The notes beneath the pieces are model-generated. The model worked only from the letters and a program-made list of their open reading frames with translations, had not been told where the DNA came from and searched no databases. The position numbers were made by a program, and so were the translations under genes. A DNA stretch of 64,000 nucleotides from an uncultured Pseudomonadales bacterium (GTDB lineage Bacteria; Patescibacteriota; Microgenomatia; UBA1400; MFAQ01), in contig CAZGSP010000039.1 in NCBI GenBank assembly GCA_964528565.1, forward strand, positions 10,411 through 74,410. Reading direction: 5' to 3'. Each line of letters opens with the position of its first letter. Position 1 is the first letter of the stretch. This document shows, in pieces, positions 12,192 through 53,100 of this stretch.

Positions 12192-12192
12192 A

Positions 12193-13011: not shown

Positions 13012-13012
13012 T

Positions 13013-14599: not shown

Positions 14600-14603
14600 C
14601 ATT

Positions 14604-26001: not shown

Positions 26002-27573
26002 TTAACTACTCAGGACATCTCCGTGTTGGCCAAGCTGTTTGGGTGAAAAGTCCATCATGTGACCGAGAAAGCGCCAGCCGGCCATGAAAAGGAATTTTAT
26101 ATCATCTAGATTTCTGATCTCGGTGATTTTTCTCATCATAAATTTTGGACTGAGAAAAGATTTATAGAGGTCTTGGGTTAGTTCCAACACCTGTTTCTCG
26201 GTAAGTGAAGATTTCATCACTGGCTTGCGCATGTCGTAGTCGTCGTAGTCTTCGGACAGAAGCCAGCCTTCTTTCTTGCATTCTTTCCATAGTGGAGTAC
26301 CGGGATAAGGAATTACTACAGTGGCTTGAAGTGTATCCACATAACCTTTTTCAAAACATTTCTTGGCCAGGTCAACAGTATTCCTGGCGTCCTCATATGT
26401 TTCCCAAGGGTACCCCATCATTATAGTAAGGTGAGGGTCTAGTCCACCCTTCTTGGCCATACGCACTCCCTCCTCTATTTGTTCGACCTTCAATCCCTTA
26501 TCCAAATGATCAAGGGTGTATTGGTTGGCGGATTCCATACCGTAAAGAATGAAACGGAAATTGGCCTTGCCCATAAGATCGTAATGCTCTTGCTTTAGGG
26601 CATTGAGACGCATATTGCAGCCGTAGACCACTTTCTTACTGTAGCCGGATTCAATCATCATGTTGCAAAAATCCATTAGAGGTTTGCCGATCATAAAAGT
26701 GCCGGCGTCATCAAAGATTTCTTTGACGTGATACTTGTCCACCACATATTTGACTTCATCAAATAATCTTTGTGGGGTAAACCTGCGGTATGAACCAACC
26801 GGGTTGATGGTGTGATCCCAAACACAGAAAGTGCAACGATTCCACCAACAGTCGCGACCGGAGTACATATAGGTAGCGGGGGTGTACTTGTAATTGCCGT
26901 TGTAAACAGAATAGAGTTCCCACTTGGTCAGGTTGCGGTCGACGAACGGAAGTTCGTTTAGATCGTGAGCGATGCTGGGTTTGCCGGAATTAGCATAGGC
27001 GGCTTTGCCTTTTCTCTTAATGGTTTCTGCCGGTTTTTGTTTGATCTTCTTGTCCCCCACTCTCCACCAGATACCGCCTTCCAGCTCCGTCCCCATGGTG
27101 AGGTGATCAAGCAGATTAACAATACCGAAATCATAATCGCCGCCGGTGATGAGGTAATCGACCTTGCTGTTATCCATCATTTCTTCAGGGGCAAAGGTAA
27201 CATGGTCCCCCACCCAGACCAAAAGTAATTTAGGGAGTTCTTTCTTGAGGATCCGGGTCAGAGCCCAGTGTTTTTTGACGATCGGAGACTTGGTTTCGAC
27301 CATGAGGATGTCCGGTTGGAATCTCTTCAGCTCCTTGAGCCACTGCTCAAATGTCTGCTCTTCGGCGATACCGTCCATCCATTTCACTTTGTAACCATGC
27401 GTCTTAGCATTTGAGGCCGCGTAGGCCGGAACCATAGGGTAGATGTAGGTCTTGGCGTTGAAATATTGGAACTGGCGGTTTTGAGACAAGAGCATGACTC
27501 CCTTGTCCGAGGGCATGGGTGGATAGCCGACGACTAAGCGTAATTGTTTTGATTTTGGGGATTTTTTTAACAT
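26002..27573 (-). CDS. B12-binding-domain radical SAM enzyme (second copy).
   Basis: Radical SAM motif RDCWWNRCTFCVWD and an N-terminal B12-binding-like region (…LLVWVGDHVTFAPEEM…). The track start at 27645 is a GTG and overlaps the ferredoxin ORF by 58 nt. The ATG at 27573 avoids that overlap. Confidence 0.75.
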   Translation of the reverse strand: MLKKSPKSKQLRLVVGYPPMPSDKGVMLLSQNRQFQYFNAKTYIYPMVPAYAASNAKTHGYKVKWMDGIAEEQTFEQWLKELKRFQPDILMVETKSPIVKKHWALTRILKKELPKLLLVWVGDHVTFAPEEMMDNSKVDYLITGGDYDFGIVNLLDHLTMGTELEGGIWWRVGDKKIKQKPAETIKRKGKAAYANSGKPSIAHDLNELPFVDRNLTKWELYSVYNGNYKYTPATYMYSGRDCWWNRCTFCVWDHTINPVGSYRRFTPQRLFDEVKYVVDKYHVKEIFDDAGTFMIGKPLMDFCNMMIESGYSKKVVYGCNMRLNALKQEHYDLMGKANFRFILYGMESANQYTLDHLDKGLKVEQIEEGVRMAKKGGLDPHLTIMMGYPWETYEDARNTVDLAKKCFEKGYVDTLQATVVIPYPGTPLWKECKKEGWLLSEDYDDYDMRKPVMKSSLTEKQVLELTQDLYKSFLSPKFMMRKITEIRNLDDIKFLFMAGWRFLGHMMDFSPKQLGQHGDVLSS

Positions 27574-27587
27574 TTGAGTTGGTTTAT

Positions 27588-27854
27588 CTAGGGGAAGATT
27601 TGCTTCCCGTTTTGGTCTTTTATAAATATAGCAAGAATGGGACACGATCTGGCGGCTTCTTTTACTTTCTCAAGAGAATCGCCATCCGGATCAATGATAA
27701 TGGCCTTGCCGTCCGAATCTCTTAGATAAAAGGTCAATGGAGCGGCAATAGAACATGGACCGGCCGATATGCATTTATTAAGATCTACCGTTATGGTATA
27801 GCCATCCTTACGAGTAGCCTCACTTTTATCTTCGGTGGTATTAACTTGGACCAT
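27588..27854 (-). CDS. Small ferredoxin-like iron-sulfur protein (single [4Fe-4S]/[3Fe-4S]-type).
   Basis: 88 aa. Contains DLNKCISAGPCSIAAP … DSLEKVKEAARSCPILAI, a Cys pattern (C-x-x-x-x-C…C-P) like mono-cluster ferredoxins. The ATG overlaps the upstream GT2 stop by 1 nt. Confidence 0.5.
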   Translation of the reverse strand: MVQVNTTEDKSEATRKDGYTITVDLNKCISAGPCSIAAPLTFYLRDSDGKAIIIDPDGDSLEKVKEAARSCPILAIFIKDQNGKQIFP

Positions 27855-28852
27855 TATTGTATTAGTTTACCAGTAAATAGAAACCCCTGAATAAACCTAA
27901 CTCCGTACCAGAGATGGGTGATGAAAATAACGGGAATTGACAAGAGAGCTTGAAAGAGATTGGATCGCCTCAAGATCCACAGAGCGTTGAACAAAAGAAC
28001 AAGTAGATAAAGACTAGAAATAACCACTCCGATATTCCATACTTTAATTATCAATATATTTTGAATTCCAAAAACATCGACAAACAACATAAACAATAAA
28101 CCTAAAAGCATGAGAGAAGGGAGAAAATATATTGGTTTGAGAGAGGTTTCGGGAAGTATCCGGGCGAAATATCCACGGTGGATGCCGAAGTTCCCGTTTT
28201 GTCTGAGATGCGGAGCAAGAATGGGTCGACGGTGATGATAAACAATAACCTTTGGATCGTAAATAATTTTTTTACCAAGTCTGTGAGTAAGATCCAGACA
28301 TAGTTTGGTGTCTTCACCGGGCCAGTATTTTGAGTCAAAACCGCCGACCTTTTCGAAATCAATCTTCCGAATCGCCAGGTTCATGGAAGGATAGTCGTCT
28401 ACATATTGTTTTTTGTCCGGTAAGAACCGGTACCGATACATCCCCGCCCCGACGGGAGAAGCAGAAGCCCAACCCGAAGCTTCCTCTTGCCAGGAAACTC
28501 CCGGCGGTGTCATCCCGGGGCCTCCAACTCCTGCGATGTTGCTTTTTTTGAAATGGGAAACTAGTGACTTGAGCCAATCGGGCGAAGGATAAGCATCATC
28601 GTCGATAAAGGCAAGAATCTCACCTTTGGCCATCTTGGCTCCAATATCTCTTTTTTCGGCCGGTCCGACATAATGCCCAAAGTATTTTTGACGGAGTTTG
28701 GGATAATCCAAATTTACCCGATAATCACAGACTAAAATGATTTCGAATTTCCTGAAGGTTTGTTTCTCTATCGCATTTAAACACTCAATCAAATAGGGAT
28801 TCTTCTTTTTGTAATCCACTACGATAATAGAAACCAGCGGAACGTATTCCAT
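27854..28852 (-). CDS. Glycosyltransferase family 2 with a C-terminal TM region.
   Basis: VSIIVVDYKKKNPYLIECLNAIEKQTFRKFEIILVCD … ILAFIDDDAYPSPDWL. The C-terminal ~90 aa are hydrophobic. Confidence 0.7.
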   Translation of the reverse strand: MEYVPLVSIIVVDYKKKNPYLIECLNAIEKQTFRKFEIILVCDYRVNLDYPKLRQKYFGHYVGPAEKRDIGAKMAKGEILAFIDDDAYPSPDWLKSLVSHFKKSNIAGVGGPGMTPPGVSWQEEASGWASASPVGAGMYRYRFLPDKKQYVDDYPSMNLAIRKIDFEKVGGFDSKYWPGEDTKLCLDLTHRLGKKIIYDPKVIVYHHRRPILAPHLRQNGNFGIHRGYFARILPETSLKPIYFLPSLMLLGLLFMLFVDVFGIQNILIIKVWNIGVVISSLYLLVLLFNALWILRRSNLFQALLSIPVIFITHLWYGVRFIQGFLFTGKLIQ

Positions 28853-29763
28853 TACTTATATCTTAACCTGAGATTCGGATCCCCGTCCCAGAGATCGGAG
28901 TGACCATCGTCATAATAACGGAGAATGTGTGTTCGATAAATGATGGCCAGATAGTCAATAAAATAATTCTGGATTGAGGATAATCCAACATTGCTGGAAA
29001 AATTGTAGGATATTTCTACCGGTGATTCATAGATTCGTTTAAACCCCAAATGGTTGGCTACCGTTAAAATTTCAAGATCAAAAGCCCATCTCTTAACAAT
29101 TAAACGAGGAAGAACGTTTACCAAGACTTCTCTTTTGAAAACTTTGAGTCCTGTCTGGGTATCGGAAACGTCAAGACCAAAGACAAATTTGGTGGCTTTC
29201 TGAACAAAATAAGAAAGGATTCTTCTCTGTAAGGGATAGATTACTTTGCTGGCATGATGACGTTTACTGCCGATAATAATATCGGCGTTGTACCACTTCA
29301 TGTGTTCGAGAGCAAGACCGATACCTTTGGCGTGAAGATCCGATCCTGCATCGATAAAGGCAATTATTCCTCCTTTTGCTCGAGCCATCCCGTAACGAAT
29401 AGCATAACCCTTGCCTTTGTTTTCAGGATAAAAATATATTTGTGTACTCCTGAACTTGATTTTTTTGGCCAGTTCGTAAGTTTTATCCTTGGGTGTTTTC
29501 CGACCATCTACCACGCAAATAATCTCGTAAGGACGATTCAGGAAATCCAAATGAAGTTTGATAAAGGCCAGGTCTTTATCGATCGTCTTGCAATTGAACG
29601 CAGGAACGATAACCGAAAGTAAGTTTGGATCGACTTTGGATACTTTATTTGAGGCGGCAATGGGCATGAGGAGATTATATACTTTAGTGAGAGTCGTAGG
29701 TGCAAAATTATTAACGACTTGGGTGAAATACCTTATGATCGTTGCGGGAGAGTAGAAAGACAA
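28852..29763 (-). CDS. Glycosyltransferase family 2, DPM1/GtrB-like (candidate polyprenyl-phosphate hexose synthase).
   Basis: LSVIVPAFNCK … YEIICVVDGRKTPKD … ENKGKGYAIRYGMARAKGGIIAFIDAGSDL resembles the DPM1/GtrB/ArnC catalytic core. Confidence 0.6.
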   Translation of the reverse strand: MSFYSPATIIRYFTQVVNNFAPTTLTKVYNLLMPIAASNKVSKVDPNLLSVIVPAFNCKTIDKDLAFIKLHLDFLNRPYEIICVVDGRKTPKDKTYELAKKIKFRSTQIYFYPENKGKGYAIRYGMARAKGGIIAFIDAGSDLHAKGIGLALEHMKWYNADIIIGSKRHHASKVIYPLQRRILSYFVQKATKFVFGLDVSDTQTGLKVFKREVLVNVLPRLIVKRWAFDLEILTVANHLGFKRIYESPVEISYNFSSNVGLSSIQNYFIDYLAIIYRTHILRYYDDGHSDLWDGDPNLRLRYK

Positions 29764-30979
29764 TGAGGAAGGTAGTGAGTAGAAGGTGGAGGCCGAAATT
29801 CGACCAGATCACGAGCGGGAATGAACCTCGAAAAACATAAAATAATATCGGCTGAGCGATGGTAGCCACCAAAAGAAAAATATTGGCTCGGGGGCGGCCA
29901 ATGGCCATAAGGTAGGAAAGAATGAACTGGCTGAGCGCGAAGAAGACCATGGTGAAAGCAAAGATCGAAAGAAAAGGGGCGGCTTCCAGGTAGGCCGAGC
30001 CCGAGAGAACTCTAATTATGAGAGTTGGAAATAGGCTAAAAATGCCGGCACCGGTGGCTCCGAAAAGGAGTACAACGGCACCGAGTTTCATCAGAATAGA
30101 TCTCGCCGAACCGGAAGCCGCATGTCGATGCGCGGCAATAGGAAGAACCAGAGCTACAAGTGGCGTAAGACCAAAAAGGATCATGCGACCCAAAATTGAA
30201 AGGGCTGAGTAAATACCGGAAAGGTGTGGATCAAAAAGAGCCCTAACCATCAGAATATCGGTGGAGATAAGAGACATGGTACCAAGTGCATAAATGAAGC
30301 TGTAACCCATTAAGCCGCCTAAAGAAAAATGCGGAGATTTCTTGATAACGATTTTCGGATAAACCGATGGACGGACGTTGAGAAAGATAATGACGGAAGT
30401 GGCAACGCTGCCCAGGAGTTGACCGATGACGGCGCCGGTAGCTCCAAAACCGAGTCGGATAAAGAAAATTGACAGGACGATAGTAACAAGAACCCCGGCG
30501 AAGCCGACAATGGTTTGGAAAACAAACTTTTGATAAGCTACCAGATATGAGCCAATGATAGTTTGATAGAGGGAAATGAAGACACTAATACCTAAGACAA
30601 TAAAGGCTAGTGAGTTGGCTTTGAAAATAAAGGATAAGGGGCCGGATAAAAAAATCAAAGCAATCCCCAAAAAGACAGCGATGGGGGTCACCGTACGAAG
30701 GAGATAATGGAAAAAGAGGTTGATGGAAACCTTATCGTCTTTGCCTTTAAATTCGGCGACATATTTGATAATGACTGTGGCAATGGTGCCGGTGGGGATT
30801 CCCAGAAGATAAATAAGTGACAAATAGGATAAAAATTCACCGTACGCGGCCGGAGCCAATAAGCGAAGCAGTATCAAATGGAAGAGATACCGAAAAATAC
30901 TCAAACCAAAACTACCGAAGTAAAAGACGGCTGATGAACGCGCTGTAGGTGTGGAAATGGCACGGAAAATTCGCTTCAT
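29711..30979 (-). CDS. MOP-superfamily flippase (Wzx / polysaccharide biosynthesis protein family).
   Basis: 422 aa, about 12 TM helices. Its N-terminal region (…LLRLLAPAAYGEFLSYLSLIYLLG…) is typical of Wzx-like oligosaccharide flippases. Confidence 0.55.
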   Translation of the reverse strand: MKRIFRAISTPTARSSAVFYFGSFGLSIFRYLFHLILLRLLAPAAYGEFLSYLSLIYLLGIPTGTIATVIIKYVAEFKGKDDKVSINLFFHYLLRTVTPIAVFLGIALIFLSGPLSFIFKANSLAFIVLGISVFISLYQTIIGSYLVAYQKFVFQTIVGFAGVLVTIVLSIFFIRLGFGATGAVIGQLLGSVATSVIIFLNVRPSVYPKIVIKKSPHFSLGGLMGYSFIYALGTMSLISTDILMVRALFDPHLSGIYSALSILGRMILFGLTPLVALVLPIAAHRHAASGSARSILMKLGAVVLLFGATGAGIFSLFPTLIIRVLSGSAYLEAAPFLSIFAFTMVFFALSQFILSYLMAIGRPRANIFLLVATIAQPILFYVFRGSFPLVIWSNFGLHLLLTTFLIVFLLSRNDHKVFHPSR

Positions 30980-31019
30980 GGCTAATATAGTTTACGCTAT
31001 ATGGCAGTACAATAATATT

Positions 31020-32432
31020 ATGAATTGGATGAAAAGAAACTGGTTGTGGCCCGTTGCAATACTTCTGATGGGAGTGTTTTGGTGGATGAGGTTTAGCGAT
31101 ATCAGAACATCTTTCTTCTTTTTCAATGATATGGGCAGGGACTCTTTGGTGTTATGGGATTGGAAAGCCACAGGCAAACCTCCTCTCTTGGGCCCACAGG
31201 CCAGTGCGATGCCGATGAACCAAAGTGCCGTCTATTATTACATGCTATATCCATTGTTTCTGGTGTTCGGAGGAGCGACAATTAGCGCTTTATATACAAA
31301 CGCAACTTTGTATATCGTGTGTTTTATTTCGGGATTAATACTCCTAAAAAATCATAAAAAATTACAGATGGCAGTGCTTGTGTTATTTTTTCTGGCCACT
31401 ATGCACCCACAATATATAATCCAAAATCGATTTGTCTGGAATCCTTCATTTATACCTCCGCTCCTATCGATATCATTTATAAGTTTGTTTTTGTTGACGG
31501 AAAAATATAATTTGCGAAGATTGATGGTTTTTTCGATCTCAATGGCTTTAGCCGTAGCTATCCATTTTCCTGCCGGTCCGTTCATGTTGGCGGCTATGAC
31601 ATACATAGCCTTATTTTGGAAAAAGAATAGAGCCAATTCAATTATTGTTTTGATTGGTTTTTTGGTATTTTTTAATCTTCCTACTTTTGTGTTTGAAGCC
31701 AGACACGACTTTCTCATCACCAAAAGTCTATTAAGTCACCAGTGGATTGGTACACAGCAATTTACAGTAGTTCAAAATATTGACAGATTGGCCAACTTTA
31801 CATTTTCGTTGGAGAACAAGACCATTGATTTGTTTTTACTGGTAACTGTACTTATCTATGGAAGTTACATATTTATAAAAAAACCAAAAGAATTTGAAGG
31901 AATGTTGGGATTTTTATTTGTGTTTTCCTTTTTAGTCACCATTGCCAGCAAAATGGCTTTCCATTCTCATTATATTTTCGGATTCACTACATTGATATTT
32001 TTACTAATTTCCGGACTTCCAAAATACTTAAAATGGATGGTTATTGTAGTTTTGGGCCTGGTCTATCTGAATCCAAATGTGACCAAACAGTATTTTGTGA
32101 CGGCACCCAGAACAGTAGAACAAATGGAACAATGTTTTGCCAAAGTATGTGGAGAAATCAAAGAACCCATCTTTGTCTCGACTCAAGCCGGATTTCACTC
32201 ATTTCACAATGGTCCGGAACACAGATTTCTGATGAAGAAAGCCGGATGCGAGGTGAAATATGTAGAAGATCCTTCTCAAATAGCTAATTTGATGGCGGTA
32301 GTGCTGGATGGCTCCAATTATGTACAAGGAGCAACCAACTATAACGAACTGACACTCTTTGGAAAAAGCAAGGAAATCAAAAGGTTTGCTTGTCAAGATA
32401 ATTTTGGGGTGGTGATATTGGAGAGAAATTAA
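31020..32432 (+). CDS. Polytopic membrane protein, paralog B of the D-x-G-R-D / GP…GP-YYY family.
   Basis: FFFFNDMGRDSLVLWDWKATGKPPLLGPQASAMPMNQSAVYYYMLYP. Multi-TM. The start is moved to the internal ATG (MNWMKRNW…), since the track start overlaps the divergent flippase gene. Confidence 0.5.
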   Translation: MNWMKRNWLWPVAILLMGVFWWMRFSDIRTSFFFFNDMGRDSLVLWDWKATGKPPLLGPQASAMPMNQSAVYYYMLYPLFLVFGGATISALYTNATLYIVCFISGLILLKNHKKLQMAVLVLFFLATMHPQYIIQNRFVWNPSFIPPLLSISFISLFLLTEKYNLRRLMVFSISMALAVAIHFPAGPFMLAAMTYIALFWKKNRANSIIVLIGFLVFFNLPTFVFEARHDFLITKSLLSHQWIGTQQFTVVQNIDRLANFTFSLENKTIDLFLLVTVLIYGSYIFIKKPKEFEGMLGFLFVFSFLVTIASKMAFHSHYIFGFTTLIFLLISGLPKYLKWMVIVVLGLVYLNPNVTKQYFVTAPRTVEQMEQCFAKVCGEIKEPIFVSTQAGFHSFHNGPEHRFLMKKAGCEVKYVEDPSQIANLMAVVLDGSNYVQGATNYNELTLFGKSKEIKRFACQDNFGVVILERN

Positions 32433-33851
32433 CTAGATTCCCAGATCACGAAGCAGATTTATTTTTATTGAGCTCTGATTGTTTGATTTTTGGACGCCGT
32501 AAATCCAGCCAAAAGCTTCATCTGCGGGACACGAGAGCGGATTACCGGCATATGTCCGAAAGAGATAACACCAGCCACCGTAGGCAGAGTAGCCAACTTC
32601 ATCTTGTGTTCCTAATATGATGGAGTAAGGCTGGTTTTGGATATCTTTGGTAATTTTGATAATTCTTTCCCTTCGGGATATCAAACCATACTTTGACTGT
32701 TCACAAGTAAAAATTGTAATAGCTGAGAAGAAAACAAGAATGAGAATCAGGAACCAGGAAATTTTGGGGCTTAAGGAAGAAAGAAGTGTCCCCGAGAAAA
32801 TGGAAAATAGGGTAAAGAAACTGAGAAGGTAGTATTCGATCACGTTACCGGGATAAAGAAGATAGGAGGTAATTGAAATAATAAGCATCACGAAAAGAAG
32901 GCAGAATTTTTTGTCTATCTTGGCCCTGAAAAACGAAAGAACCAAGATACCCAAAGAAAAGGATGAAAGGAGAAGGATGGAACCTGTTGGTGTACCCGCA
33001 CCTCCGAAGCCCATTTCGGCCTGAACTGACGTCCGAGGACGTAGATACCAGAAACGACTAAGCGAGTTCCAAGTGGTGGACAAACGGCCAGGCATTCGAT
33101 CTATCATGGAGGTATTGCTTTGGGAAGTGAGCATGCGAAGCGGAGTGCGCAGATTGTCAAAGTTATGGACTTTGTCGAAGACAAGAAGTGGAGAAATCAA
33201 AACCAGATATACGACGACGGAAGATATCCAGGTACTAAAAGTGATTCTTTTGAAGGACTTAAAAACGAGAAAAATAATTACCGGCCAGAACATGAGCAGT
33301 GAAAGGTGAACATGGAGCACCGTGGCCATAATGGCCGAAACGAGAATGAACCAACGAGTATCTTTCTGAGATTTGTATAAAGAATATAACAGCCAAATAG
33401 TCAGTAGCGGAATGGGAGATGGATTCCAGAAACGACGATCAAAGAAATTCAAGAGAGGAGATCCGGCGTATATAAGTGAAGAAAAAATGGCTACCGAGGG
33501 CGAAAACAATTGAGACGAAACAAAGTATAAGGAAATAACCGTAGCCAGACCAAGTAACGGGGCAAAGTAAGCAAGAATAAGGGGGTCTCCTCCCGAGAAG
33601 AAGAATAATAGGGCATTTAAATAGGTGAAGGCGGGTCCAAGATAAAAACCGGTATTTCCGGCGCTCACTCCAATCCAGATGGGATGAAAATCCTGGACCT
33701 GTGACCAAGCAAGAAAAGCCTGATATTCTTCGTCAAAATTGAAACTAAACCACTCACCTGCTTTCCAAAAACGGAGTACCACCAGAAAAACAAATAAGAC
33801 GGCTACGACGAATTTGTATAGATTGTTTGTTGATGAAGATTCTTTGGCCAC
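32433..33851 (-). CDS. GT-C membrane glycosyltransferase, PMT_2/ArnT-like.
   Basis: The first loop carries SFNFDEEYQAFLAWSQ (DE motif). 472 aa, multi-TM. Confidence 0.5.
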   Translation of the reverse strand: MAKESSSTNNLYKFVVAVLFVFLVVLRFWKAGEWFSFNFDEEYQAFLAWSQVQDFHPIWIGVSAGNTGFYLGPAFTYLNALLFFFSGGDPLILAYFAPLLGLATVISLYFVSSQLFSPSVAIFSSLIYAGSPLLNFFDRRFWNPSPIPLLTIWLLYSLYKSQKDTRWFILVSAIMATVLHVHLSLLMFWPVIIFLVFKSFKRITFSTWISSVVVYLVLISPLLVFDKVHNFDNLRTPLRMLTSQSNTSMIDRMPGRLSTTWNSLSRFWYLRPRTSVQAEMGFGGAGTPTGSILLLSSFSLGILVLSFFRAKIDKKFCLLFVMLIISITSYLLYPGNVIEYYLLSFFTLFSIFSGTLLSSLSPKISWFLILILVFFSAITIFTCEQSKYGLISRRERIIKITKDIQNQPYSIILGTQDEVGYSAYGGWCYLFRTYAGNPLSCPADEAFGWIYGVQKSNNQSSIKINLLRDLGI

Positions 33852-33866
33852 AGAAATAGTTTAGTA

Positions 33867-34997
33867 CTAGGCGACGAAGTAGCCGCGAGTAAAGAAAATG
33901 ATGGAGAGAATAGACAAGACGGTGCAAACAGCATAGAGACCATACTTAACAAAAGGATGTTGTTTCTCCAACCAATAAGCCATGACCATGAACACGGGGA
34001 AAAGCACCAAAGTAAACCGGGGCATACTCATAAAAGTGCCGGAAAATGTGGGAAGAGCGAACGACAACAGAACAAATAACCAATAAGAAAAACGGATTCT
34101 CTTGAAGAAAAAAATTAGGATGGTGATAATCAACAAGGCCGAAAGCAACTCCATGACAACGGTAAAGTAGAGAGGATCCCAGTCGGTGAAAATTAGCATT
34201 TTGAAATACCGGAAAAAGACTTGGTGAAGAAGGATGAGTTTGTCCACGGTTCGGCCACCGAAAACAGACTGGATATGAAAAAAGAATAACGGATCCCCGG
34301 TCTTGAGATACTGAAAACGCATGAATGAAAAAAGCCCCAGTGGAGGAAGCAGCAACCATATGGCAGATAGATTAACCGACTTTCTAAAATCTTTGCCGTA
34401 CATGAGCCAGTATTCATAAATGATGGAGGGCCAGAGAAAAAATCCGGTGATTCGGGTGGCCGAAGCGATCGCGGCCAAAAGACAGGCCAGGAAGAAGTGT
34501 TGGCGGCGAAGCAAATAAAAAGTCAGGATAACCAGTAAGAGAAACAAAGACTCGGTATAGACGGAGCCAAAAAAGAAGGCTGTGGGAAAAAGAAGAAGTA
34601 AATAAATAGTACTCTTGGCGATCTTGGGTTTGAAGTCGAGTAGAACTAGTTTGTAGAGGAAATAGAGAGCCAGAATAAGGGAGACGTGTGAGACAAATAA
34701 TCCCGAAGCAAGATAATTACCGAAATAGTTGAAGGTTCGAACCGACCACGGGTAGACAGGGAAAAAAGCATAATCCATATCGGTTTTGTGCTGATAGCCA
34801 TAGCCGTATTGAGCAAGATCCAGGTAATGAAGTCCGTCAAAGTTTGACCACATGGAGAAGATATTACTGACCGAAGGCTTTTCCGTCAGATTGGTGAAGC
34901 GGGTACGGGGAGAAAGGAGGAACATGGCCGGAAGGGCAATAAGAACGATTAGTAGCCGCCAACCCAGAACGAGTTTGAAGATCTCTTTTAGTGACAT
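33867..34997 (-). CDS. GT-C membrane protein resembling the PIG-V / GT76 mannosyltransferase family.
   Basis: WSNFDGLHYLDLAQYGYGYQHKTDMDYAFFPVYPW matches the W-D-x-x-x-Y-x-x-I-A-x-x-G-Y … AFFPLYP signature of PIG-V-like proteins. Confidence 0.45.
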   Translation of the reverse strand: MSLKEIFKLVLGWRLLIVLIALPAMFLLSPRTRFTNLTEKPSVSNIFSMWSNFDGLHYLDLAQYGYGYQHKTDMDYAFFPVYPWSVRTFNYFGNYLASGLFVSHVSLILALYFLYKLVLLDFKPKIAKSTIYLLLLFPTAFFFGSVYTESLFLLLVILTFYLLRRQHFFLACLLAAIASATRITGFFLWPSIIYEYWLMYGKDFRKSVNLSAIWLLLPPLGLFSFMRFQYLKTGDPLFFFHIQSVFGGRTVDKLILLHQVFFRYFKMLIFTDWDPLYFTVVMELLSALLIITILIFFFKRIRFSYWLFVLLSFALPTFSGTFMSMPRFTLVLFPVFMVMAYWLEKQHPFVKYGLYAVCTVLSILSIIFFTRGYFVA

Positions 34998-36001
34998 AGG
35001 GTTTTGTAAACTTCTAGGGTGAGGTGGGCGGTTTTGGACCAGCTGAAATCGCGAGAACGCTTTTTGGCCAGTTCGATCTGCTTGGCCTTGGCTGAAGATG
35101 ATAGATTTAGAGCATTGGCGATTGCTTTTTCCATCGATTTTAATTTTCTTGGGTTAAAGACGATCGCCTCTTCGTGGTAGACCTCCGGGAGACTGGAGGT
35201 CTTGGAACTGGCCACCAGACAACCGGCTGTCATCGCTTCGAGTAGTGGAAGACCAAACCCTTCGTAGAGGGAGGGCTGGACATAAAGTTCGGCCAAATGA
35301 AGCATGGCATTAAAGTCATCGTTTGGGACGTAACCCGGATAAATAATGTGGTTATAGACCTGAAGTCGGACAAGATCGATAAGCTCGGGTTCGACCGGTT
35401 TGACGATCTCCTGCAGCATACCTTTTCCGACTATGACGAGCGGTATTTCCAGACGATCGGTGACTTCTGCCAGTGAAGGGAGATTCTTGTTCGGGTTGGG
35501 ACCGGCGGCGAGAGTCAGAACAAATTTGTCGGGTAAATGATATTTTTCTTTTACCTCCTTAAGTTTGGATGCCGAGGGAACTTTTCGGTATGCCTCGTCC
35601 ACAGCCAGAGGGGTAACAAATATTTTCTCCGGAGCGGTGCGGAAGTACTTGATGATATCTTCTTTGGAATTTCCGGAATCGGTGATAATGGCAGAGACGG
35701 TTCTGAGTGACCACCACTGAATGAGAAGTTTTATGGTTCCCCTAATGCCTTTGGGGTATTTATCGGCCAGAACCAAGGGTGTCAGATCGTGGATGGTGAC
35801 AACGGTCGGTCTTTCTTTTTTTAAGGGTAAGGTGAGATAAAAAGGATCGAAAAAAGGATAGTGAATAATGTCGGGATCTTTATCGGTCAGCTCAATTTTC
35901 GGTAATTTTTCGAGGGCAGTTCGAAGATGTTCGGCATAGACACCGACTCCCCTACCGGAAGAGTGTCCACCACCATCGAGAAAGACTTTAATTGGTGCCA
36001 T
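34988..36001 (-). CDS. Glycosyltransferase family 4 (GT-B).
   Basis: …VVTIHDLTPLV… and …EGFGLPLLEAMTAGCLVASSKTSSLPEV…. Confidence 0.7.
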   Translation of the reverse strand: MAPIKVFLDGGGHSSGRGVGVYAEHLRTALEKLPKIELTDKDPDIIHYPFFDPFYLTLPLKKERPTVVTIHDLTPLVLADKYPKGIRGTIKLLIQWWSLRTVSAIITDSGNSKEDIIKYFRTAPEKIFVTPLAVDEAYRKVPSASKLKEVKEKYHLPDKFVLTLAAGPNPNKNLPSLAEVTDRLEIPLVIVGKGMLQEIVKPVEPELIDLVRLQVYNHIIYPGYVPNDDFNAMLHLAELYVQPSLYEGFGLPLLEAMTAGCLVASSKTSSLPEVYHEEAIVFNPRKLKSMEKAIANALNLSSSAKAKQIELAKKRSRDFSWSKTAHLTLEVYKTLCH

Positions 36002-36869
36002 ATTCTTCGTCTTTATAGAGTTCCCATAGTTTCATATAGGAGAAAGCGTGATGAAGACCGGAATAGAGTGAAAAAACAAAGCCTGGAAAACCATCCATGA
36101 AGCCGCGGTAACGGAAATAGAGACTGCAGAAAGTGCCGAGGGGTTTAAAAAATAAATAGTTTAGCGTATTAAAGATGTTGATCTTGACTCCGGCTTCTTT
36201 TAATTGATGAGCCTTCAGACTAGAGTACGTATTTTCTCTCAGGAGATATCGGGAAAAATGAGGGGTGGCGTAATGATCCAGATCCGACACCAACCAACCG
36301 GTAACGCCGTGGACCACCATTTGCTCGTGAACGTCCTTGGCCGGAAGAACAGCTTTCCCTTTTTGAAAGAGACGGATGACCGGATCGGGGTACTGACCGG
36401 CGTTTTTGAGATAACGATTCAGAAAGAAGTTTTTACGGGGTAGCCAGTAGGCAGGGGCTGGTTCCGTCAATTTTTTTGGTCTGGGAAAAACAGTTAGATA
36501 TTTATTGACCGATGATTTGAGAGGAGAGATCCAGGAATCATAGCCAAAATACGTGCCCTCCAGAATACCGACGATCTCCTTCTTCATCCCGGGGGTAACT
36601 CTTTCGTCGGCATCCATCTGAAGAATCCAGTCGGACTGGGCTTCCCGGTTCGCGATGGCTTTTTGAATATGGAAGATCGGATTGTTTTCCCGGAGGAGGA
36701 TTTTGGCCCCATATTTCTTGGCGATCTCTACCGTCTTGTCCTGAGACCGGCCATCGACGATGATGATCTCGTCCGCAAAGTCTTTGACCGAGTCGAGACA
36801 GGCGGCGATGTTTGACTCTTCGTTGTAGGTAGCCAGGGTGACGGAGATAGTTTGGCGTTTTATTTTCAT
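35988..36869 (-). CDS. Glycosyltransferase family 2, D-x-D-E-R subfamily.
   Basis: ISVTLATYNEESNIAACLDSVKDFADEIIIVDGRSQDKT … WILQMDADERVTPGMKKEIVGIL. A paralog of the ORFs at 1718, 59631 and 62310. Confidence 0.7.
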   Translation of the reverse strand: MKIKRQTISVTLATYNEESNIAACLDSVKDFADEIIIVDGRSQDKTVEIAKKYGAKILLRENNPIFHIQKAIANREAQSDWILQMDADERVTPGMKKEIVGILEGTYFGYDSWISPLKSSVNKYLTVFPRPKKLTEPAPAYWLPRKNFFLNRYLKNAGQYPDPVIRLFQKGKAVLPAKDVHEQMVVHGVTGWLVSDLDHYATPHFSRYLLRENTYSSLKAHQLKEAGVKINIFNTLNYLFFKPLGTFCSLYFRYRGFMDGFPGFVFSLYSGLHHAFSYMKLWELYKDEEYGTN

Positions 36870-38503
36870 GGTGTGGCAATAAACTTGTACATAGGATGTC
36901 CCACAGGGTCGTTTATGATGTAGATGACCGCTTTGTCATCTACGGACTCATCAGCAGAGATTATAAGGGTTTTGACAAGCTTCCGGTCCTCGGGATAGTT
37001 TATTTGCCTGAATTCGAACTTATCAAACGCCCGGACCGTGGAGAAACCGAACCTGTCCCGCGGGGTCATAACCAGTTCCTTTTGTAATTTTTGGGGTGGA
37101 TATTGAAGAAAGAAAGCCATCAAAATATAGGGCTGGTCGTAGCGGTCGGAGATCACGATACGGTCGTATTCATCGTAGTGTTCTTTGACGTAGCCGGCTA
37201 TTTGGTCAAAGCCATATTGCCATGCATAGGGTAATTCTTTGGGATAATGAACGTAGTACAGATGGAGATAACGGGCGACACAGTAGCCACCGAAAAGAGA
37301 GATTAGGAAAACAAAGAGAGAAAAGACCACTTTGATGTTTATCTTCTTAAAAAATTCCATGGTCGCGGTAACACCAAAGGCACAGATAAATGTCAAAGGT
37401 ATCACCATATTTTGGGCGCGAAGGGCATGAGGACTTTGGAACGTCAGAGCCGCTGCCAAAGGAGAGATCAGGAACCAGATAAAAATCAATCGCTTTTCTT
37501 TTGATTCTAATTTCAACAAGGAAAGTAGCCCAAAAAAGTAAAACGGTATAAGGAACATATAGGTTTGCCCCATGCCGGGTACTTTACTGCGGGCGATTTC
37601 GTCCCCGGTGACAAAGAGGAAACGTGGCGAATAATGAGAAAGATAATTCTTCACAAACCTGAGACTGTAGGAAAGATATTGATTGTGGATGGCTTTTACA
37701 AAGATCGTTTCCGGAACATGGGCGCGGCGCATTTCCAGGGCCTGCCATAACGGACCGGTGTCGGCAAAGACGGAAACACCGGTAAAACGGGACTGGCCTT
37801 CTTTGGACAGTAGTTGACCGGCCAAGGGAAGTACGAGAACAAAACCGAGGACGGCGGCGGCAATAACTAGTTTTATCCTCTTCGGCGCCAAGTCGCCCAA
37901 TAAAGGTTTCCAATAAATAACCAGGAGAGATAAAACCAATAGTGGAGAAATGATTCGAGCGGAATGATAGGCGTACATGCCGGTTGCCATGGATGCTGCA
38001 AAAAGGAATAAGAGTTTAGTTTTTTCCAGACCTCTAAAAAAGGCCCAAAGTCCCAATAGGATAAAGAACAGAGCGGCATTTACTTCCCACCCGCCTCGGG
38101 AAAATTGAAGATGCCATGGTGAGATGGCCAGGAGCAAGGCCGAAATGACCGGTAAATATTTATTTTTGGGGAATAGTGATCGGGCCAATAAATAAACAAG
38201 ATAGACGGAAGCAATACCCAAGATGGCCGATGGAAGGCGGACAGCCCAGATGTTTAAACCGAGGATCTTCACAAACGGCAAAACCAAATAAAAATAGACC
38301 GGGGGTTTGAAGTCGTCAAAAGACCGGAAGACCAGTGGCCAGGAAGCTCCGTGTTCATCCTTGCCGGTTTGGATCAGGGACCAGGCGTTGTAACCGATGG
38401 CGGCTTCGTCGGCGTTTAGACCGGCGGGGAATTTATCCAGAGCAAAAAGTCTTAGGGCCGAAGCTAAAAGAAGAATTAAAATGATGGATAAATATTTTTT
38501 CAT
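36866..38503 (-). CDS. GT-C membrane glycosyltransferase, PMT_2/ArnT-like. Tandem paralog 1 of 6.
   Basis: MKKYLSIILILLLASALRLFALDKFPAGLNADEAAIGYNAWSLIQTGKDEHGASWPLVFRSFDDFKPPVYFYL. Multi-TM. 4-nt overlap with the downstream GT2. Confidence 0.65.
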   Translation of the reverse strand: MKKYLSIILILLLASALRLFALDKFPAGLNADEAAIGYNAWSLIQTGKDEHGASWPLVFRSFDDFKPPVYFYLVLPFVKILGLNIWAVRLPSAILGIASVYLVYLLARSLFPKNKYLPVISALLLAISPWHLQFSRGGWEVNAALFFILLGLWAFFRGLEKTKLLFLFAASMATGMYAYHSARIISPLLVLSLLVIYWKPLLGDLAPKRIKLVIAAAVLGFVLVLPLAGQLLSKEGQSRFTGVSVFADTGPLWQALEMRRAHVPETIFVKAIHNQYLSYSLRFVKNYLSHYSPRFLFVTGDEIARSKVPGMGQTYMFLIPFYFFGLLSLLKLESKEKRLIFIWFLISPLAAALTFQSPHALRAQNMVIPLTFICAFGVTATMEFFKKINIKVVFSLFVFLISLFGGYCVARYLHLYYVHYPKELPYAWQYGFDQIAGYVKEHYDEYDRIVISDRYDQPYILMAFFLQYPPQKLQKELVMTPRDRFGFSTVRAFDKFEFRQINYPEDRKLVKTLIISADESVDDKAVIYIINDPVGHPMYKFIATP

Positions 38504-40186
38504 TTATGGCTTGGTCTTGAGGACTCTAAAAAGAATTTTATGATCGGGGGTTTCGATCTGACGGAAATGTTCGACATTTGAGCCGGCGATATCGTATTGT
38601 CTATTGATATTACCCTCGGAGCCAATAAAAAGGGTGTCTTTCTGGGTGTTCATATCGGAATCTCCAAACTGGTGGAACTCCACGTTGCCGATCTTATCAA
38701 CACGTCCAACATCCAAACCGCCACTGACGAAGTCGTTGTTAGCTTGATATGTGGCGGGGTCGTAGGCGGTATAAAAAACATAATAGATATATGGCTGGCC
38801 AAAGACATCGGTGAAAACAATTTTTTTGGCGGGATAGTCTTTGATGGCTTGGACTACCTGTTTGTAGCCATAATTAAACTCCGAGGCAAAAACCGTTTGG
38901 CTATGGAAGAAATAAACATCAAAGGTGTAGAAGGTGAGGAGAACATACAAAGCCACCAGTGGTATGGAGAAGTATTTTAAAATTGAAAGACAATAATACG
39001 TACCGATACCGGAAATAATGGCTAGTGGTACGGTCATAAATAAAGCCCGAACGGTAGAAAATTCCGCAAGTGTTAATGAGGCGGGGATGGGGGCAATGAG
39101 TAACAGACCCAGGATGATCAAAGGTGTCTTATCAAATCCCTCGTGCGTACCGTTAACTATTAATCTCGATAGATAGATCAAACCGAAGATAAGCCAGATA
39201 AATTCGAGGGGGTTCAAGATTCCCAGAGATGGAACGTGTCCCCTCTCGGTAATGGTGGGACCCTCGTAAAAAAGTACTTCCGGTGAAAAATGGTAAACAT
39301 ACCTGGACAGAACCAGCGAGGTCGAGAGCTGAAGCTGGTTGTGAAATAACGGAATGGTCCCGGAGCCCGCGCCGTCGATCGGTGCCAATTTGGCAGTGAG
39401 ATCCGGCTTGTAGTTGAAAATACTCAGGGTGCTAAGCCTGTTCCCGGCACTGCCCAAAATCGAACCAAAGAAGATCCAAAGTCCGAAAAGAACAAAGGGT
39501 GCAAGAAGTAATAATTTTTTAGGTTTAAGGTAAACTGGAATTTGTTGCCAAAAATCTTTCCGGTAAATAGCTAGAAATAAAAGAAAAACGAGTGGAGTAA
39601 GAAGTTTGGCGGCTTGATACATGGCCAGGGAAAGGCAGGCAAATAGCAAAGACGGAAAAATGGACGAACTCCCCTTGAGGAATCTAAGGAAGTAATACAA
39701 AGCAAAAATGGTCAGTGTGGTAAATACATTCACTTCCCACGCGCCATGACTAAAATGGACATGCCAAGGCGAAATAGCCAGTGCGAGGGCGGCGAGGTCC
39801 CAGGGGAACAACTCAAAGCCGAGGATTTTAAAACCTTTTGTCTTTGAATCAATAAAAATTTCTTTGGTTAGGAGATAGACTCCCCAGATGGCCAAAATAC
39901 CGGCAAGAGCGCTAGGAAAGCGGACTGCAAATTCATTTAAACCAAATATGGCCACCATGGGAACGGTGAGATAAATGTAGGCGCCGGGTTTGTAATCACC
40001 AAAACTTTTGAAAATAAGGGGGAGAAAAGCGCCGTGCTCGTCCCTGCCGGTCTTGAGAATGGAATAGGCGTTGTAACCAATGGCCGCTTCATCCCAGGTA
40101 AGCCCGTTGGGAACAGCTGACAACATCCATAGCCTAAGAAAAGATCCGATGACCAACGCAATAATTAGAATAAGGTATTTCTTCAT
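38504..40186 (-). CDS. GT-C membrane glycosyltransferase, PMT_2/ArnT-like. Tandem paralog 2 of 6.
   Basis: MKKYLILIIALVIGSFLRLWMLSAVPNGLTWDEAAIGYNAYSILKTGRDEHGAFLPLIFKSFGDYKPGAYIYL. Confidence 0.65.
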   Translation of the reverse strand: MKKYLILIIALVIGSFLRLWMLSAVPNGLTWDEAAIGYNAYSILKTGRDEHGAFLPLIFKSFGDYKPGAYIYLTVPMVAIFGLNEFAVRFPSALAGILAIWGVYLLTKEIFIDSKTKGFKILGFELFPWDLAALALAISPWHVHFSHGAWEVNVFTTLTIFALYYFLRFLKGSSSIFPSLLFACLSLAMYQAAKLLTPLVFLLFLAIYRKDFWQQIPVYLKPKKLLLLAPFVLFGLWIFFGSILGSAGNRLSTLSIFNYKPDLTAKLAPIDGAGSGTIPLFHNQLQLSTSLVLSRYVYHFSPEVLFYEGPTITERGHVPSLGILNPLEFIWLIFGLIYLSRLIVNGTHEGFDKTPLIILGLLLIAPIPASLTLAEFSTVRALFMTVPLAIISGIGTYYCLSILKYFSIPLVALYVLLTFYTFDVYFFHSQTVFASEFNYGYKQVVQAIKDYPAKKIVFTDVFGQPYIYYVFYTAYDPATYQANNDFVSGGLDVGRVDKIGNVEFHQFGDSDMNTQKDTLFIGSEGNINRQYDIAGSNVEHFRQIETPDHKILFRVLKTKP

Positions 40187-41877
40187 GGTACAGAGGTAAT
40201 TGTAAACGCCGGGGAGCCATCCAGGAAGTTAATCGTTTCGATCACGTGGGCATTGACCGGAACGTGGTCCGGCGAGGTAACTAGCAGACCCCTGGCAGTC
40301 GAGATCTCTTGTCCACTTTCAATAGGCAAGGAATTTATCCCTATGGTGGGGATTTGCCAATCGTTGACAAAATAAACGTTATCAATCTTGTCCGTCCAGA
40401 ACCAATCGGACTTTTCATAACGGATGTTCTCCGGTCCCGGTTGGAGCTTTTCGGGAGACAGCCCGGTAAAGAAAACATAGAAAATATGCGGTTCGCCGTA
40501 ACGTTTGGTGATAAAGATGCGGTCGTATTCCGACCAGTGCTCCGAGATATAATCCATGACTTGTTCGTAACCATACTGCCAGGAAGAAGAGAACTTGGTC
40601 TTGTAATCACCTGCGTATTGTCCCAGGTAATAGCCGAAGGAAAGTAAGGTCCAGAGAGAAAAAAGAGAGACAAAAATCAATTGTCTCTTTTCTGGTATGA
40701 GGACCAAAAGCCTGGCCAGACCCAAACAAGCCAAAATAACAACTGCGGGTATCATGGGATTTGGCCGGAGAGCTTGGGGCGGATCAATGGTCAGGCTGGC
40801 GGCGACGGGGGAAAGGAATAACCAGGCATAGAGCATTTGGAAGGCCTTGTCACTTTTGACGTGAGGTAGATAGAAAATGAAACCCAAAAGAGCCAGAAGG
40901 AAGACCGGAAGGGTCAGCAGGTTTTCCTTGGGAATAGCAAACTGGTATTGGGCTCCCCACTTTTGAGAAAAGAAATCCGGAGAGAAATAGCCGAGATAGT
41001 TCTTCGAGAAAATAGTGAGGAAATAAACGGGCCGGTTGTAAATAAGTCTGGCCACAAGTGAAGGAAGGGGGCTTTGGGCTCTATTTTCTCCGATTTGAAA
41101 GACTGATGAGGGCGAAAGAATTTTTAGTTTGTCATAACGGGCCGTCCCCTCTCCTAAATATACTTGAAAGATAACGAGGCCGGAGAAGAGCAATGCCATG
41201 AATATCGATAGACCGGTTTTGAAATTTATCTTTATTTTGGGCCGGTAGATTAAAAAGGACAAGATCACCATGAGAGGGACAAAGACCCTGGCTGTGTTGT
41301 AAGTATGCAAAGATAAACCAAGTAAAACGACGGAGGGTAGAATGGAGGCCTTATTCCCAAAAAATTTTAGTAAGAAATAAAATCCGAAGATGATGAGGGT
41401 CAGAGATAAGTTGGCTTCCAGTGCCGGTCTGGAGATAAAAAAGTGCCAGGGAAGAATGGCTAGTAACAAAGCGGTTAGAAAGCCAAGATTTATTTTGCGC
41501 TTAAATAAATTTTGGGAAAGGTTGGGGAAAATCTCATTGGTCAGTAAATATATACCGGGAATAGCAAGAGTACCCGCAAAGGCAGAGATAAACCTGACAG
41601 CAAAGGCATTGAGGCCAAAAAGCCAAACCGGAATAACCGAAAGATAGATATATAGAGGAAGTTTGAAATCGCCAAAGGCGCGGAAAATTAGCGGAAAGGT
41701 TTTGCCCCATTCGTCCTTGCCCGTCTGTAAAATCGAAAGGGCGTTGTATCCGTGACTCACTTCGTCCCAGTTTAAAGAGACGGGTAATGATCCAAGTTTC
41801 CAAAATCTTAAGATACCGCTGACTATCGTCAGAATGAGGAGGACTAAAAAGCTATGGTTTTTAAAAATGGACTTCAT
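40183..41877 (-). CDS. GT-C membrane glycosyltransferase, PMT_2/ArnT-like. Tandem paralog 3 of 6.
   Basis: …LNWDEVSHGYNALSILQTGKDEWGKTFPLIFRAFGDFKLPLYIYL…. Confidence 0.65.
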   Translation of the reverse strand: MKSIFKNHSFLVLLILTIVSGILRFWKLGSLPVSLNWDEVSHGYNALSILQTGKDEWGKTFPLIFRAFGDFKLPLYIYLSVIPVWLFGLNAFAVRFISAFAGTLAIPGIYLLTNEIFPNLSQNLFKRKINLGFLTALLLAILPWHFFISRPALEANLSLTLIIFGFYFLLKFFGNKASILPSVVLLGLSLHTYNTARVFVPLMVILSFLIYRPKIKINFKTGLSIFMALLFSGLVIFQVYLGEGTARYDKLKILSPSSVFQIGENRAQSPLPSLVARLIYNRPVYFLTIFSKNYLGYFSPDFFSQKWGAQYQFAIPKENLLTLPVFLLALLGFIFYLPHVKSDKAFQMLYAWLFLSPVAASLTIDPPQALRPNPMIPAVVILACLGLARLLVLIPEKRQLIFVSLFSLWTLLSFGYYLGQYAGDYKTKFSSSWQYGYEQVMDYISEHWSEYDRIFITKRYGEPHIFYVFFTGLSPEKLQPGPENIRYEKSDWFWTDKIDNVYFVNDWQIPTIGINSLPIESGQEISTARGLLVTSPDHVPVNAHVIETINFLDGSPAFTITSVP

Positions 41878-46049: not shown

Positions 46050-46072
46050 GTTAACTAGACAAATTATATGCG

Positions 46073-53070: not shown

Positions 53071-53100
53071 AGGTTGAGAGTGTTAGAATTAAAATTGAAA

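Follow-up and report, generated by a model that had tools for sequence, protein, structure and literature searches.

A conserved flippase–GT2 gene pair in a glycan gene island of a Microgenomatia bacterium, a candidate source of lipid-linked donor sugar for GT-C glycosyltransferases

The locus described here consists of a flippase gene and a glycosyltransferase family 2 (GT2) gene among genes for membrane glycosyltransferases of the GT-C fold, in a 64-kb stretch of DNA from a Microgenomatia bacterium (contig CAZGSP010000039.1; the whole stretch is referred to as the window). Among the closest described systems is GacI/GacJ/GacK/GacL of Streptococcus pyogenes, which adds the N-acetylglucosamine (GlcNAc) side chain to the group A carbohydrate and belongs to the "type b" multi-component transmembrane glycosylation systems (PMC8035078). 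In it, GacI, a cytoplasmic GT-A enzyme without transmembrane (TM) helices, acts with the help of GacJ; the flippase, GacK, is of the Wzx type, and GacL is a GT-C enzyme (PMC8035078). In Haloferax volcanii, the AglR protein, which resembles Wzx and other members of the multidrug/oligosaccharidyl-lipid/polysaccharide (MOP) superfamily, has been proposed to deliver dolichyl-phosphate (Dol-P)-mannose of the AglD route to the GT-C-like AglS. In the AglJ/AglG.../Agl15 pathway of Haloferax, a DPM1-like GT2 primes an oligosaccharide on a lipid monophosphate, which an AglR homologue is proposed to flip. Bacterial GtrA/GtrB/GtrX systems (yfdG-yfdH-yfdI of CPS-53 in Escherichia coli) combine a flippase, a lipid-phosphate-sugar synthase and a variable GT-C, and in the CsbB/GtcA/YfhO systems, which glycosylate teichoic acids, the GT-C is YfhO. 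In mycobacteria, whose flippases are not known to be MOP proteins, many GT-Cs of lipomannan, lipoarabinomannan and arabinogalactan synthesis work on one or few polyprenyl-phosphate-sugar donors (from Ppm1 or PpgS).

We identified in the window a conserved unit of a gene for a 12-TM MOP protein and a gene for a 271-residue GT2, here called GT2-271. Our preferred reading, to which we give a probability of about one half, is that GT2-271 would make a polyprenyl-phosphate-sugar, the MOP protein would flip it, and the GT-C enzymes encoded around the pair would use it as donor. A previous description drawn from the sequence alone (the original prediction) had proposed a complete three-component extracytoplasmic glycosylation module at 28852-33851. 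All four of the open reading frames (ORFs) that it named are present at their coordinates, and the peptides ICVVDG, NKGKGYAIRYG and FIDAGSDL occur in the translation of 28852-29763 (minus strand). With corrected boundaries, these four genes are as follows.

28852-29667, minus strand: GT2-271, a GT2 that has no membrane helices and that sequence comparison places with the polyprenyl-phosphate glycosyltransferases (DPM1/GtrB/ArnC-like)
29711-30979, minus strand: flippase gene (WZX), a 422-residue, 12-TM MOP-superfamily protein of the polysaccharide transport (PST)/Wzx type, candidate lipid-linked sugar flippase
31020-32432, plus strand: GTC470, a membrane glycosyltransferase of 470 residues with a modelled GT-C fold and no Pfam family; accessory, and divergent from the flippase gene
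32433-33851, minus strand: PMT2-472, a PMT_2/ArnT-like GT-C with FDEEY after the first TM helix; accessory

The GT2 ORF had been read from a TTG at 29763, giving 303 residues and an overlap of 53 nt with the flippase gene. In the database product, as in every homologue, the protein begins with MPIAAS, which sets the product at 271 residues (28852-29667) and its start 43 nt beyond the flippase stop codon. The flippase had been said to follow the GT2; the two genes are indeed adjacent, in the reverse order, as both lie on the minus strand, so that the flippase is transcribed first and GT2-271 second. This flippase-then-GT2 order matches that of yfdG (gtrA)-yfdH (gtrB)-yfdI in E. coli. The stop codon of GT2-271 shares its last base with the start of a further GT2 gene, GT2-332TM (1-nt overlap). 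On the other side, the plus-strand GTC470 gene, whose start at 31020 is supported by homologues, diverges from the flippase gene over 40 nt only and converges with the PMT2-472 gene with zero spacer; this antisense gene thus separates the flippase-GT2 block from the upstream minus-strand genes in this genome. The window as a whole is made up mostly of tightly packed minus-strand genes. A promoter scan gave no more sites than in shuffled sequence, and terminator-like sites reached about twice the shuffled number, yet were not located at gene ends. We also observed that the plus strand is G-/A-rich over 28000-50000 although nearly all genes there lie on the minus strand; a T-/C-rich coding strand is expected where most genes encode hydrophobic membrane proteins.

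By the description of its components, the locus resembles the Gac system, with a candidate C55-phosphate-sugar GT2, a Wzx-type flippase rather than GtrA, and GT-C enzymes, all inside a larger cell-wall polysaccharide cluster. It differs in that no GacJ-like small membrane partner was recognised, GT2-332TM following instead; that one synthase/flippase pair stands among about 20 GT-Cs, where Gac has one; that an ABC exporter to carry a backbone polymer was not detected; and that the GT2 has a DAGSD motif and no RxxGESK. With GtrA/GtrB/GtrX it shares the combination of flippase, lipid-phosphate-sugar synthase and variable GT-C, GtrB being the second-best solved relative of GT2-271. In contrast to those systems, the flippase is a 12-TM MOP protein of 422 residues (GtrA has about 120), the GT2 is without the two C-terminal TM helices of GtrB, and the variable GT-Cs are encoded upstream of it and of the flippase, one of them divergently. 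A YfhO-type GT-C in the window recalls CsbB/GtcA/YfhO. The likeness to the mycobacterial pathways is one of logic only; PpgS is the best NCBIfam match of GT2-271, and the structural matches of GTC470 include AftD, AftB and Emb proteins. Compared with Haloferax, the host here is a bacterium of the candidate phyla radiation (CPR), no AglB/STT3 was detected, and similarity to Agl proteins is only at the generic GT2 level. The replacement of GtrA by a MOP flippase, to which the original prediction had drawn attention, is not novel, GacK and AglR being described precedents. Out of the ordinary are the presence of one pair per about 20 GT-Cs, a GT2 donor site remodelled throughout the family, and a GT-C family without a Pfam model.

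The class of GT2-271 was indicated by profile comparisons. The protein contains a GT-A domain of the GT2 family (PF00535, 5.2e-15, 56 bits against a cut-off of 23.3), and its best NCBIfam match is PpgS, a polyprenyl-phospho-GalNAc synthase (1e-13, 51 bits against a cut-off of 370), followed more weakly by a haloarchaeal Dol-P hexose transferase, AglJ (3e-7) and ArnC. The PpgS model covers residues 51-262 of the 303-residue ORF, corresponding to model positions 4-208 of 226. Searches of the Protein Data Bank (PDB) with the single GT2-271 sequence, or with its C-terminal third, gave no match. A profile of 23 homologues retrieved, ahead of all other GT2s, the Dol-P-mannose synthase of Pyrococcus furiosus (PfDPMS, 5mlz, 1.1e-9), GtrB (5ekp, 3.8e-9) and ArnC (9hwj, 8.4e-7), in alignments that pass through an acceptor-side D-x-x-T-G-(L/F)-K-x-F-(K/R)-R motif. 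In PfDPMS, the best solved relative, the phosphate of Dol-P is bound by R117, R131 and S135 (PMC5526996). These residues align in the hidden Markov model (HMM) comparison with K135/R136, R148 and S152 of GT2-271, a set that is invariant or at least 90% conserved in the 23 sequences (R148 invariant, S152 at least 90%).

We found no TM helix or hydrophobic segment in GT2-271; its strongest predicted amphipathic segments, at 137-166 and 228-245, lie where the interface helices of DPMS are found. PfDPMS lacking residues 230-352, its TM domain, is still active and membrane-bound, and human DPM1 (the type II form of DPMS) has no TM helix either, indicating that the lack of TM helices does not disqualify GT2-271. 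None of the ten other window GT2s that we tested shows a polyprenyl-phosphate signature, which leaves GT2-271 as the only recognised GT2 of the DPM1/GtrB/ArnC class in the window. On this sequence evidence we place GT2-271 among the polyprenyl-phosphate glycosyltransferases, as a divergent member that lacks TM helices and in which two canonical motifs fail, so that the DPM1/GtrB-like assignment of the original prediction holds. The protein is 64-83% identical to its homologues (the 271-residue product being on record). In all, 1874 homologues were counted, and public records already label it as a dolichol-phosphate mannosyltransferase and the flippase as a polysaccharide biosynthesis protein.

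For the flippase, we identified 157 homologues at E<=0.001. The sequence itself matched no Pfam model up to E=10 and no NCBIfam model, the family profile matched no PDB sequence, and the exact window sequence had no entry in the contig index. Within a set of 31 homologues (50-80% identity), 14 match PF01943 (Polysacc_synt) and 9 match PF13440 (Polysacc_synt_3), with a best E value of 2e-9, and none matches MurJ/MviN (PF03023) or MatE (PF01554). The AlphaFold model has a predicted local distance difference test score (pLDDT) of 87; it is made up solely of helices, about 12 in number, with the MOP arrangement of two six-helix bundles and 12 TM helices, and MurJ is its most distant MOP match. We rejected a MurJ identity, which the original prediction had named as refuting it, given that none of the 31 homologues matches PF03023, the distant fold and the count of about 12 helices against 14. 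The modelled fold thus establishes the MOP superfamily, and it is the profiles of the homologues and the gene context that favour Wzx over MATE. Sequence families and model together thus point to a MOP protein of the PST/Wzx type, not MurJ, in agreement with the 12-TM MOP/Wzx-type flippase first proposed. It is the only MOP protein in the window. We found no GtrA-sized multi-TM ORF (60-260 residues) in any gap between annotated window genes, and two polytopic proteins of 229 and 273 residues gave no GtrA match in Pfam.

We investigated the distribution of these genes across 28 distinct loci. Homologues led to 4 contigs and a genome scan yielded 26 loci, from which two duplicates were removed. 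The loci come mostly from Candidatus Collierbacteria, with some Woese- and Shapirobacteria. They share a backbone in the order PMT_2 array, GT2 (293 residues), GT4 (337), PIG-V-like GT-C (376), a variable insert, flippase, GT2-271, GT2-332TM, ferredoxin and B12-binding radical-SAM (S-adenosylmethionine) protein. In the window, the members of this backbone outside the four genes listed above are as follows.

26002-27854, minus strand: ferredoxin (88 residues) and B12-binding radical-SAM protein (547 residues); Pfam/NCBIfam matches
27854-28852, minus strand: GT2-332TM, a second GT2 of 332 residues with 3-4 C-terminal TM helices; conserved partner
33867-34997, minus strand: PIGV-376, a PIG-V-like GT-C; the conserved GT-C upstream of the flippase
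34988-36869, minus strand: GT4-337 and GT2-293, conserved cytoplasmic glycosyltransferases; Pfam matches
36866-47764, minus strand: PMT_2 array, six PMT_2-type GT-C paralogues of 545-565 residues and one 273-residue polytopic protein; Pfam matches

In 23/27 loci GT2-271 comes after the flippase, on the same strand and no more than 5 kb away, and in 20 of them the genes are directly adjacent with essentially no spacer. GT2-332TM follows GT2-271 in 17/24 loci, and the PIG-V-like gene lies upstream of the flippase in 18/26. GT4-337 was found in 20/25 loci (median identity to the window 70%), GT2-293 in 17/21 (73%), and the ferredoxin and radical-SAM genes each in 11 of 21-23 (80% and 86%). Median identity was 75% for GT2-271 and 60% for the flippase, 48-53% for the PIG-V-like protein, GTC470 and PMT2-472, and 34-65% for the genes of the PMT_2 array. 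The variable insert holds GTC470 in 8/25 loci and PMT2-472 in only 4/25; some GT-C is always found near the flippase-synthase pair, and which one varies. Thus, within a large envelope-glycan gene cluster of Collierbacteria and their Microgenomates relatives, the flippase-GT2 pair is the conserved unit, and GTC470 and PMT2-472 are accessory and strain-variable, like the serotype-specific gtr genes.

These comparisons bear on the proposed three-component module as a whole. The linkage of flippase and GT2 is conserved and GT-Cs do adjoin it, and the two GT-Cs that the original prediction included are variable. Its boundaries at 28852 and 33851 do not hold, as conserved neighbours lie outside them on both sides (the PIG-V-like, GT4, GT2 and PMT_2 array genes on one, the GT2-332TM, ferredoxin and radical-SAM genes on the other). 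Our literature search on this cluster in Microgenomates or the CPR found nothing relevant. We additionally observed that several metagenome-assembled genomes of third parties bearing the cluster are titled "uncultured Pseudomonadales", "Gammaproteobacteria bacterium" or, in one case, "Spirochaetia" (L009, L012, L015, L022-L026, L029-L031); on a cluster of Collierbacteria type these titles are probably taxonomic mislabels.

The two accessory enzymes were both recognised as GT-Cs, by different routes. The divergent membrane protein with a D-x-G-R-D motif at 31020-32432, GTC470, had no Pfam match even at E=10 and no NCBIfam match, and its family profile matched no PDB sequence. We counted 653 cluster representatives among its homologues, and the family comprises 139 representatives (50% clustering) below 1e-30. 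Its invariants are D37, R40, D41 and four cysteines in a C-terminal alpha/beta domain, and its motifs are FFNDxGRD, PPLLGPQ and WNPS. The AlphaFold2 model (pLDDT 94) gave ArnT (5f15, 1e-5), PglB and ALG12 as top Foldseek matches and ALG3, ALG9, DPY19, AftD, AftB, Emb proteins and Pmt4 as further ones, so that the model supports a GT-C-fold enzyme of a family without a Pfam model. In some organisms GTC470 is fused behind one or two GT2 domains (783-1008 residues; P0248, P0255, P0303, P0252).

PMT2-472 matches PF13231 (2.4e-7, 31.6 bits against a cut-off of 26.1), as expected of the PMT_2-like GT-C predicted at 32433-33851, and has about 9 TM helices. In both proteins a GT-C fold or profile is accompanied by an acidic motif of the first outer loop, PMT2-472 through PF13231 and FDEEY, and GTC470 through its modelled structure and D37/D41. 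PIGV-376 matches PF04188 (1.2e-5) and has about 10 TM helices; neither it nor PMT2-472 matched any sequence in the PDB. The six PMT_2 paralogues of the array are only 24-35% identical among themselves and the order 564-560-545 is kept across loci, which marks them as old, specialised paralogues and not recent duplicates. Within the array lie the two polytopic proteins already mentioned, of 273 residues (45228-46049, minus strand, about 7 TM helices) and 229 residues (47761-48450, minus strand, about 5), neither with a Pfam match at E=10.

The window in its entirety is a glycan island. Besides methyltransferases, an epimerase and an asparagine-synthase homologue, it encodes a ferredoxin, two B12 radical-SAM proteins and at least 14 GT2 and 4 GT4 enzymes. 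Polytopic GT-C-like proteins of the PMT_2, YfhO, PIG-V-like and GT87-like types number about 20, with at least 13 profile matches to these families. Our scan of approximately 50 window ORFs detected no domain of a phosphoglycosyl transferase, an ABC exporter, Wzy_C or LCP, and there was no chain-length regulator in the 64 kb and no STT3/PglB- or PglL/WaaL-type transferase by Pfam. GT2-332TM matches PF00535 (1e-15) and, below their cut-offs, the NCBIfam models MftF and AglG (AglG-like, 7e-19); its PDB matches are generic sugar-to-sugar GT2s (chondroitin synthase, TarS and PglI). The 547-residue radical-SAM protein is closest to HpnJ and BchE in NCBIfam, far below cut-offs. Together with the ferredoxin it lies directly downstream of the two GT2s and is among the most conserved genes of the cluster. 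The second B12 radical-SAM gene is at 16862-18442 (minus strand).

Further genes of the window were noted. Three polytopic proteins of 606, 766 and 546 residues (2661-4481, 7901-10201 and 58009-59649, all minus strand), with 8-11 predicted TM helices each and no Pfam match, may represent additional GT-C enzymes that escaped recognition, or polymerases. Only one sizeable block of genes lies on the plus strand, at 11577-15608; it encodes a HAD/KdsC-like protein (recognised by eye from VLDVDGVMTDG), a shikimate-dehydrogenase-like protein, a 528-residue MobA-like nucleotidyltransferase and a GatZ/KbaZ-like protein, and has the look of a unit that would supply an unusual sugar in nucleotide-linked form. 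A 757-residue YfhO-family GT-C is encoded at 53074-55347 (plus strand), with no CsbB-like GT2 or GtcA adjoining.

From the gene identities, folds, motifs and synteny observed here, we infer the activities, the sugar and the acceptors of the following route. GT2-271 would bind to the membrane's cytoplasmic side through its amphipathic interface helices and, as its class and its conserved acceptor-phosphate residues suggest, would attach one sugar to polyprenyl phosphate with a nucleotide sugar as donor. The adjacent 12-TM Wzx-type protein would carry the polyprenyl-phosphate-sugar to the outer face, a role suggested by its fold, family and synteny. There the lipid-linked sugar would serve as donor for GT-Cs, namely the conserved PIG-V-like protein and PMT_2 array plus the two accessory enzymes, among about 20 in the window, which would build or decorate a surface glycan or glycoprotein. 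Against so many GT-C-like proteins the window offers a single DPM1-like GT2 and a single MOP protein, and no candidate for GtrA, so that many of these GT-Cs probably receive their donor from the pair. The reading is favoured by the class and phosphate pocket of the GT2, the conserved flippase-GT2 linkage, the demand for donor, and the lack of Wzx/Wzy or ABC pathway parts.

Several observations weigh against it. In the GT2-271 family, an invariant D106-A-G-S-D110 stands in place of DADLQ, an invariant C26 replaces the glutamate of YNE (E12 in PfDPMS), and the A-loop R-x-x-G-E/D-S/T-K (RxxGESK), which is present in E. coli ArnC (REFGESK) and YfdH/GtrB (RIAGDTK), is not recognisable. The HMM alignments to DPMS, GtrB and ArnC all end near residue 185-187, and every NCBIfam score is far below its equivalog cut-off. 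The flippase matches no profile by its own sequence, and fold alone cannot separate Wzx from MATE. The GT2 is missing within 10 kb of the flippase in 3-4 loci (L021, L022 and L026 among them). Finally, the translational coupling of GT2-332TM to GT2-271, together with the many cytoplasmic GT2 and GT4 enzymes, would fit an oligosaccharide built before flipping.

The changes in GT2-271 concern the donor-side network. In its segment 217-233, N222 and S225 are invariant and no arginine or lysine is conserved. A placement by MAFFT of RxxGESK opposite (N/R)LGFK(K/R) needed a 13-residue gap and was rejected, as the HMMER alignments to ArnC and YfdH end earlier and the semi-global pairwise alignments of the C-terminal third gave spurious end overlaps. 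An ungapped alignment with human DPM1 would set N222-F-S-S-N opposite R-x-x-G-E-S-K, which we take as a lead only. In PfDPMS, E12, D91 (of DAD) and R202/K208 (of the A-loop) form one network of donor, metal and A-loop contacts; here they are replaced by the invariant C26, by D-A-G-S-D (G108/D110) and by N222-F-x-S225-N. The A-loop of PfDPMS touches the donor phosphate, not the lipid (PMC5526996). By the sign that the original prediction had named as refuting it, a GT2 without the DPM1-type acceptor loop, it is in part contradicted: RxxGESK is not recognisable and DAD and YNE are altered, whereas the lipid-phosphate residues are kept. This pattern suggests a changed binding of donor or metal in the family, and D110 may substitute in the metal/diphosphate motif.

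The same changes, invariant as they are, could be taken to mean that GT2-271 is not a lipid-phosphate glycosyltransferase, that its acceptor is of another kind, for instance a protein, a sugar or some small molecule bearing phosphate, and that the "module" is a mere neighbourhood of glycan genes. The early end of the alignments (residue ~187), the missing TM helix and the sub-threshold NCBIfam scores would agree with this. We consider it improbable, as the three best solved relatives are all polyprenyl-phosphate glycosyltransferases, the acceptor-phosphate triad is kept, the PpgS model aligns over most of the protein, the A-loop contacts donor rather than lipid in PfDPMS, and active TM-less forms are known. 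Distinctly unlikely, too, is a conventional Wzx role, in which the MOP protein would flip an undecaprenyl-diphosphate repeat unit primed from elsewhere in the genome, the adjacency of GT2-271 would reflect operon packing, and the phosphate-linked monosaccharide would cross by another route. The homologues do belong to O-antigen and exopolysaccharide flippase families (PF01943/PF13440), the cluster does contain many cytoplasmic glycosyltransferases, and in L021, L022 and L026 the flippase occurs without the GT2. To our knowledge, the flippases for Dol-P-mannose and decaprenyl-phosphate-sugars in other systems are unknown or are not MOP proteins. Against this stand the lack in 64 kb of a priming phosphoglycosyl transferase, Wzy_C, chain-length regulator or LCP ligase domain, and the adjacency to the GT2, which is the most conserved linkage that the flippase has.

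A real, if unlikely, possibility is priming in the archaeal style. GT2-271 would add the first sugar, as AglJ does, GT2-332TM and other glycosyltransferases would extend a phosphate-linked oligosaccharide, the Wzx-type protein would flip it, as proposed for Agl15, and a GT-C would transfer it en bloc. This would explain why the GT2-332TM gene overlaps the GT2-271 stop codon by 1 nt and follows it in most loci, and why its matches are sugar-extending GT2s; it agrees with the weak AglJ match of GT2-271, with an abundance of GT2 and GT4 enzymes without a phosphoglycosyl transferase to prime a diphosphate-linked glycan, with the assembly of the Haloferax N-glycan on Dol-P in the same manner, and with oligosaccharides being the usual cargo of Wzx. 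However, the AglG and AglJ matches are far below cut-offs and generic for GT2s, Pfam detected no STT3/PglB- or PglL/WaaL-type transferase, and the GT-Cs of the PMT_2/ArnT, PIG-V, YfhO and GT87-like types would still need a flipped monosaccharide donor. Characterised members of these GT-C groups use monosaccharide-phosphate-lipid donors.

Supply of a flipped monosaccharide to GT-Cs by the pair is therefore the reading that we retain. A bolder version of it, offered tentatively and doubtful in its entirety, is that one pair would feed a single polyprenyl-phosphate-sugar to an assembly line of about 20 GT-Cs for a CPR-specific envelope glycopolymer, largely assembled outside the cytoplasm and comparable in its logic to mycobacterial lipomannan and arabinan; that the synthase would form a distinct subfamily with a remodelled donor network (YNC, DAGSD and NFSSN for YNE, DAD and RxxGESK); and that the ferredoxin and B12 radical-SAM proteins would modify the lipid or the sugar. 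If this were true, it would follow from the remodelled network that the donor is unusual or that the mechanism needs no metal. The envelopes of CPR/Patescibacteria, organisms that live in attachment to other cells, have hardly been characterised. One synthase and one MOP flippase amid about 20 GT-Cs point to a major surface glycan or to heavy protein glycosylation, and the pair is a natural case for the question of whether MOP flippases carry monosaccharide-phosphate-lipids, as for GacK and AglR.

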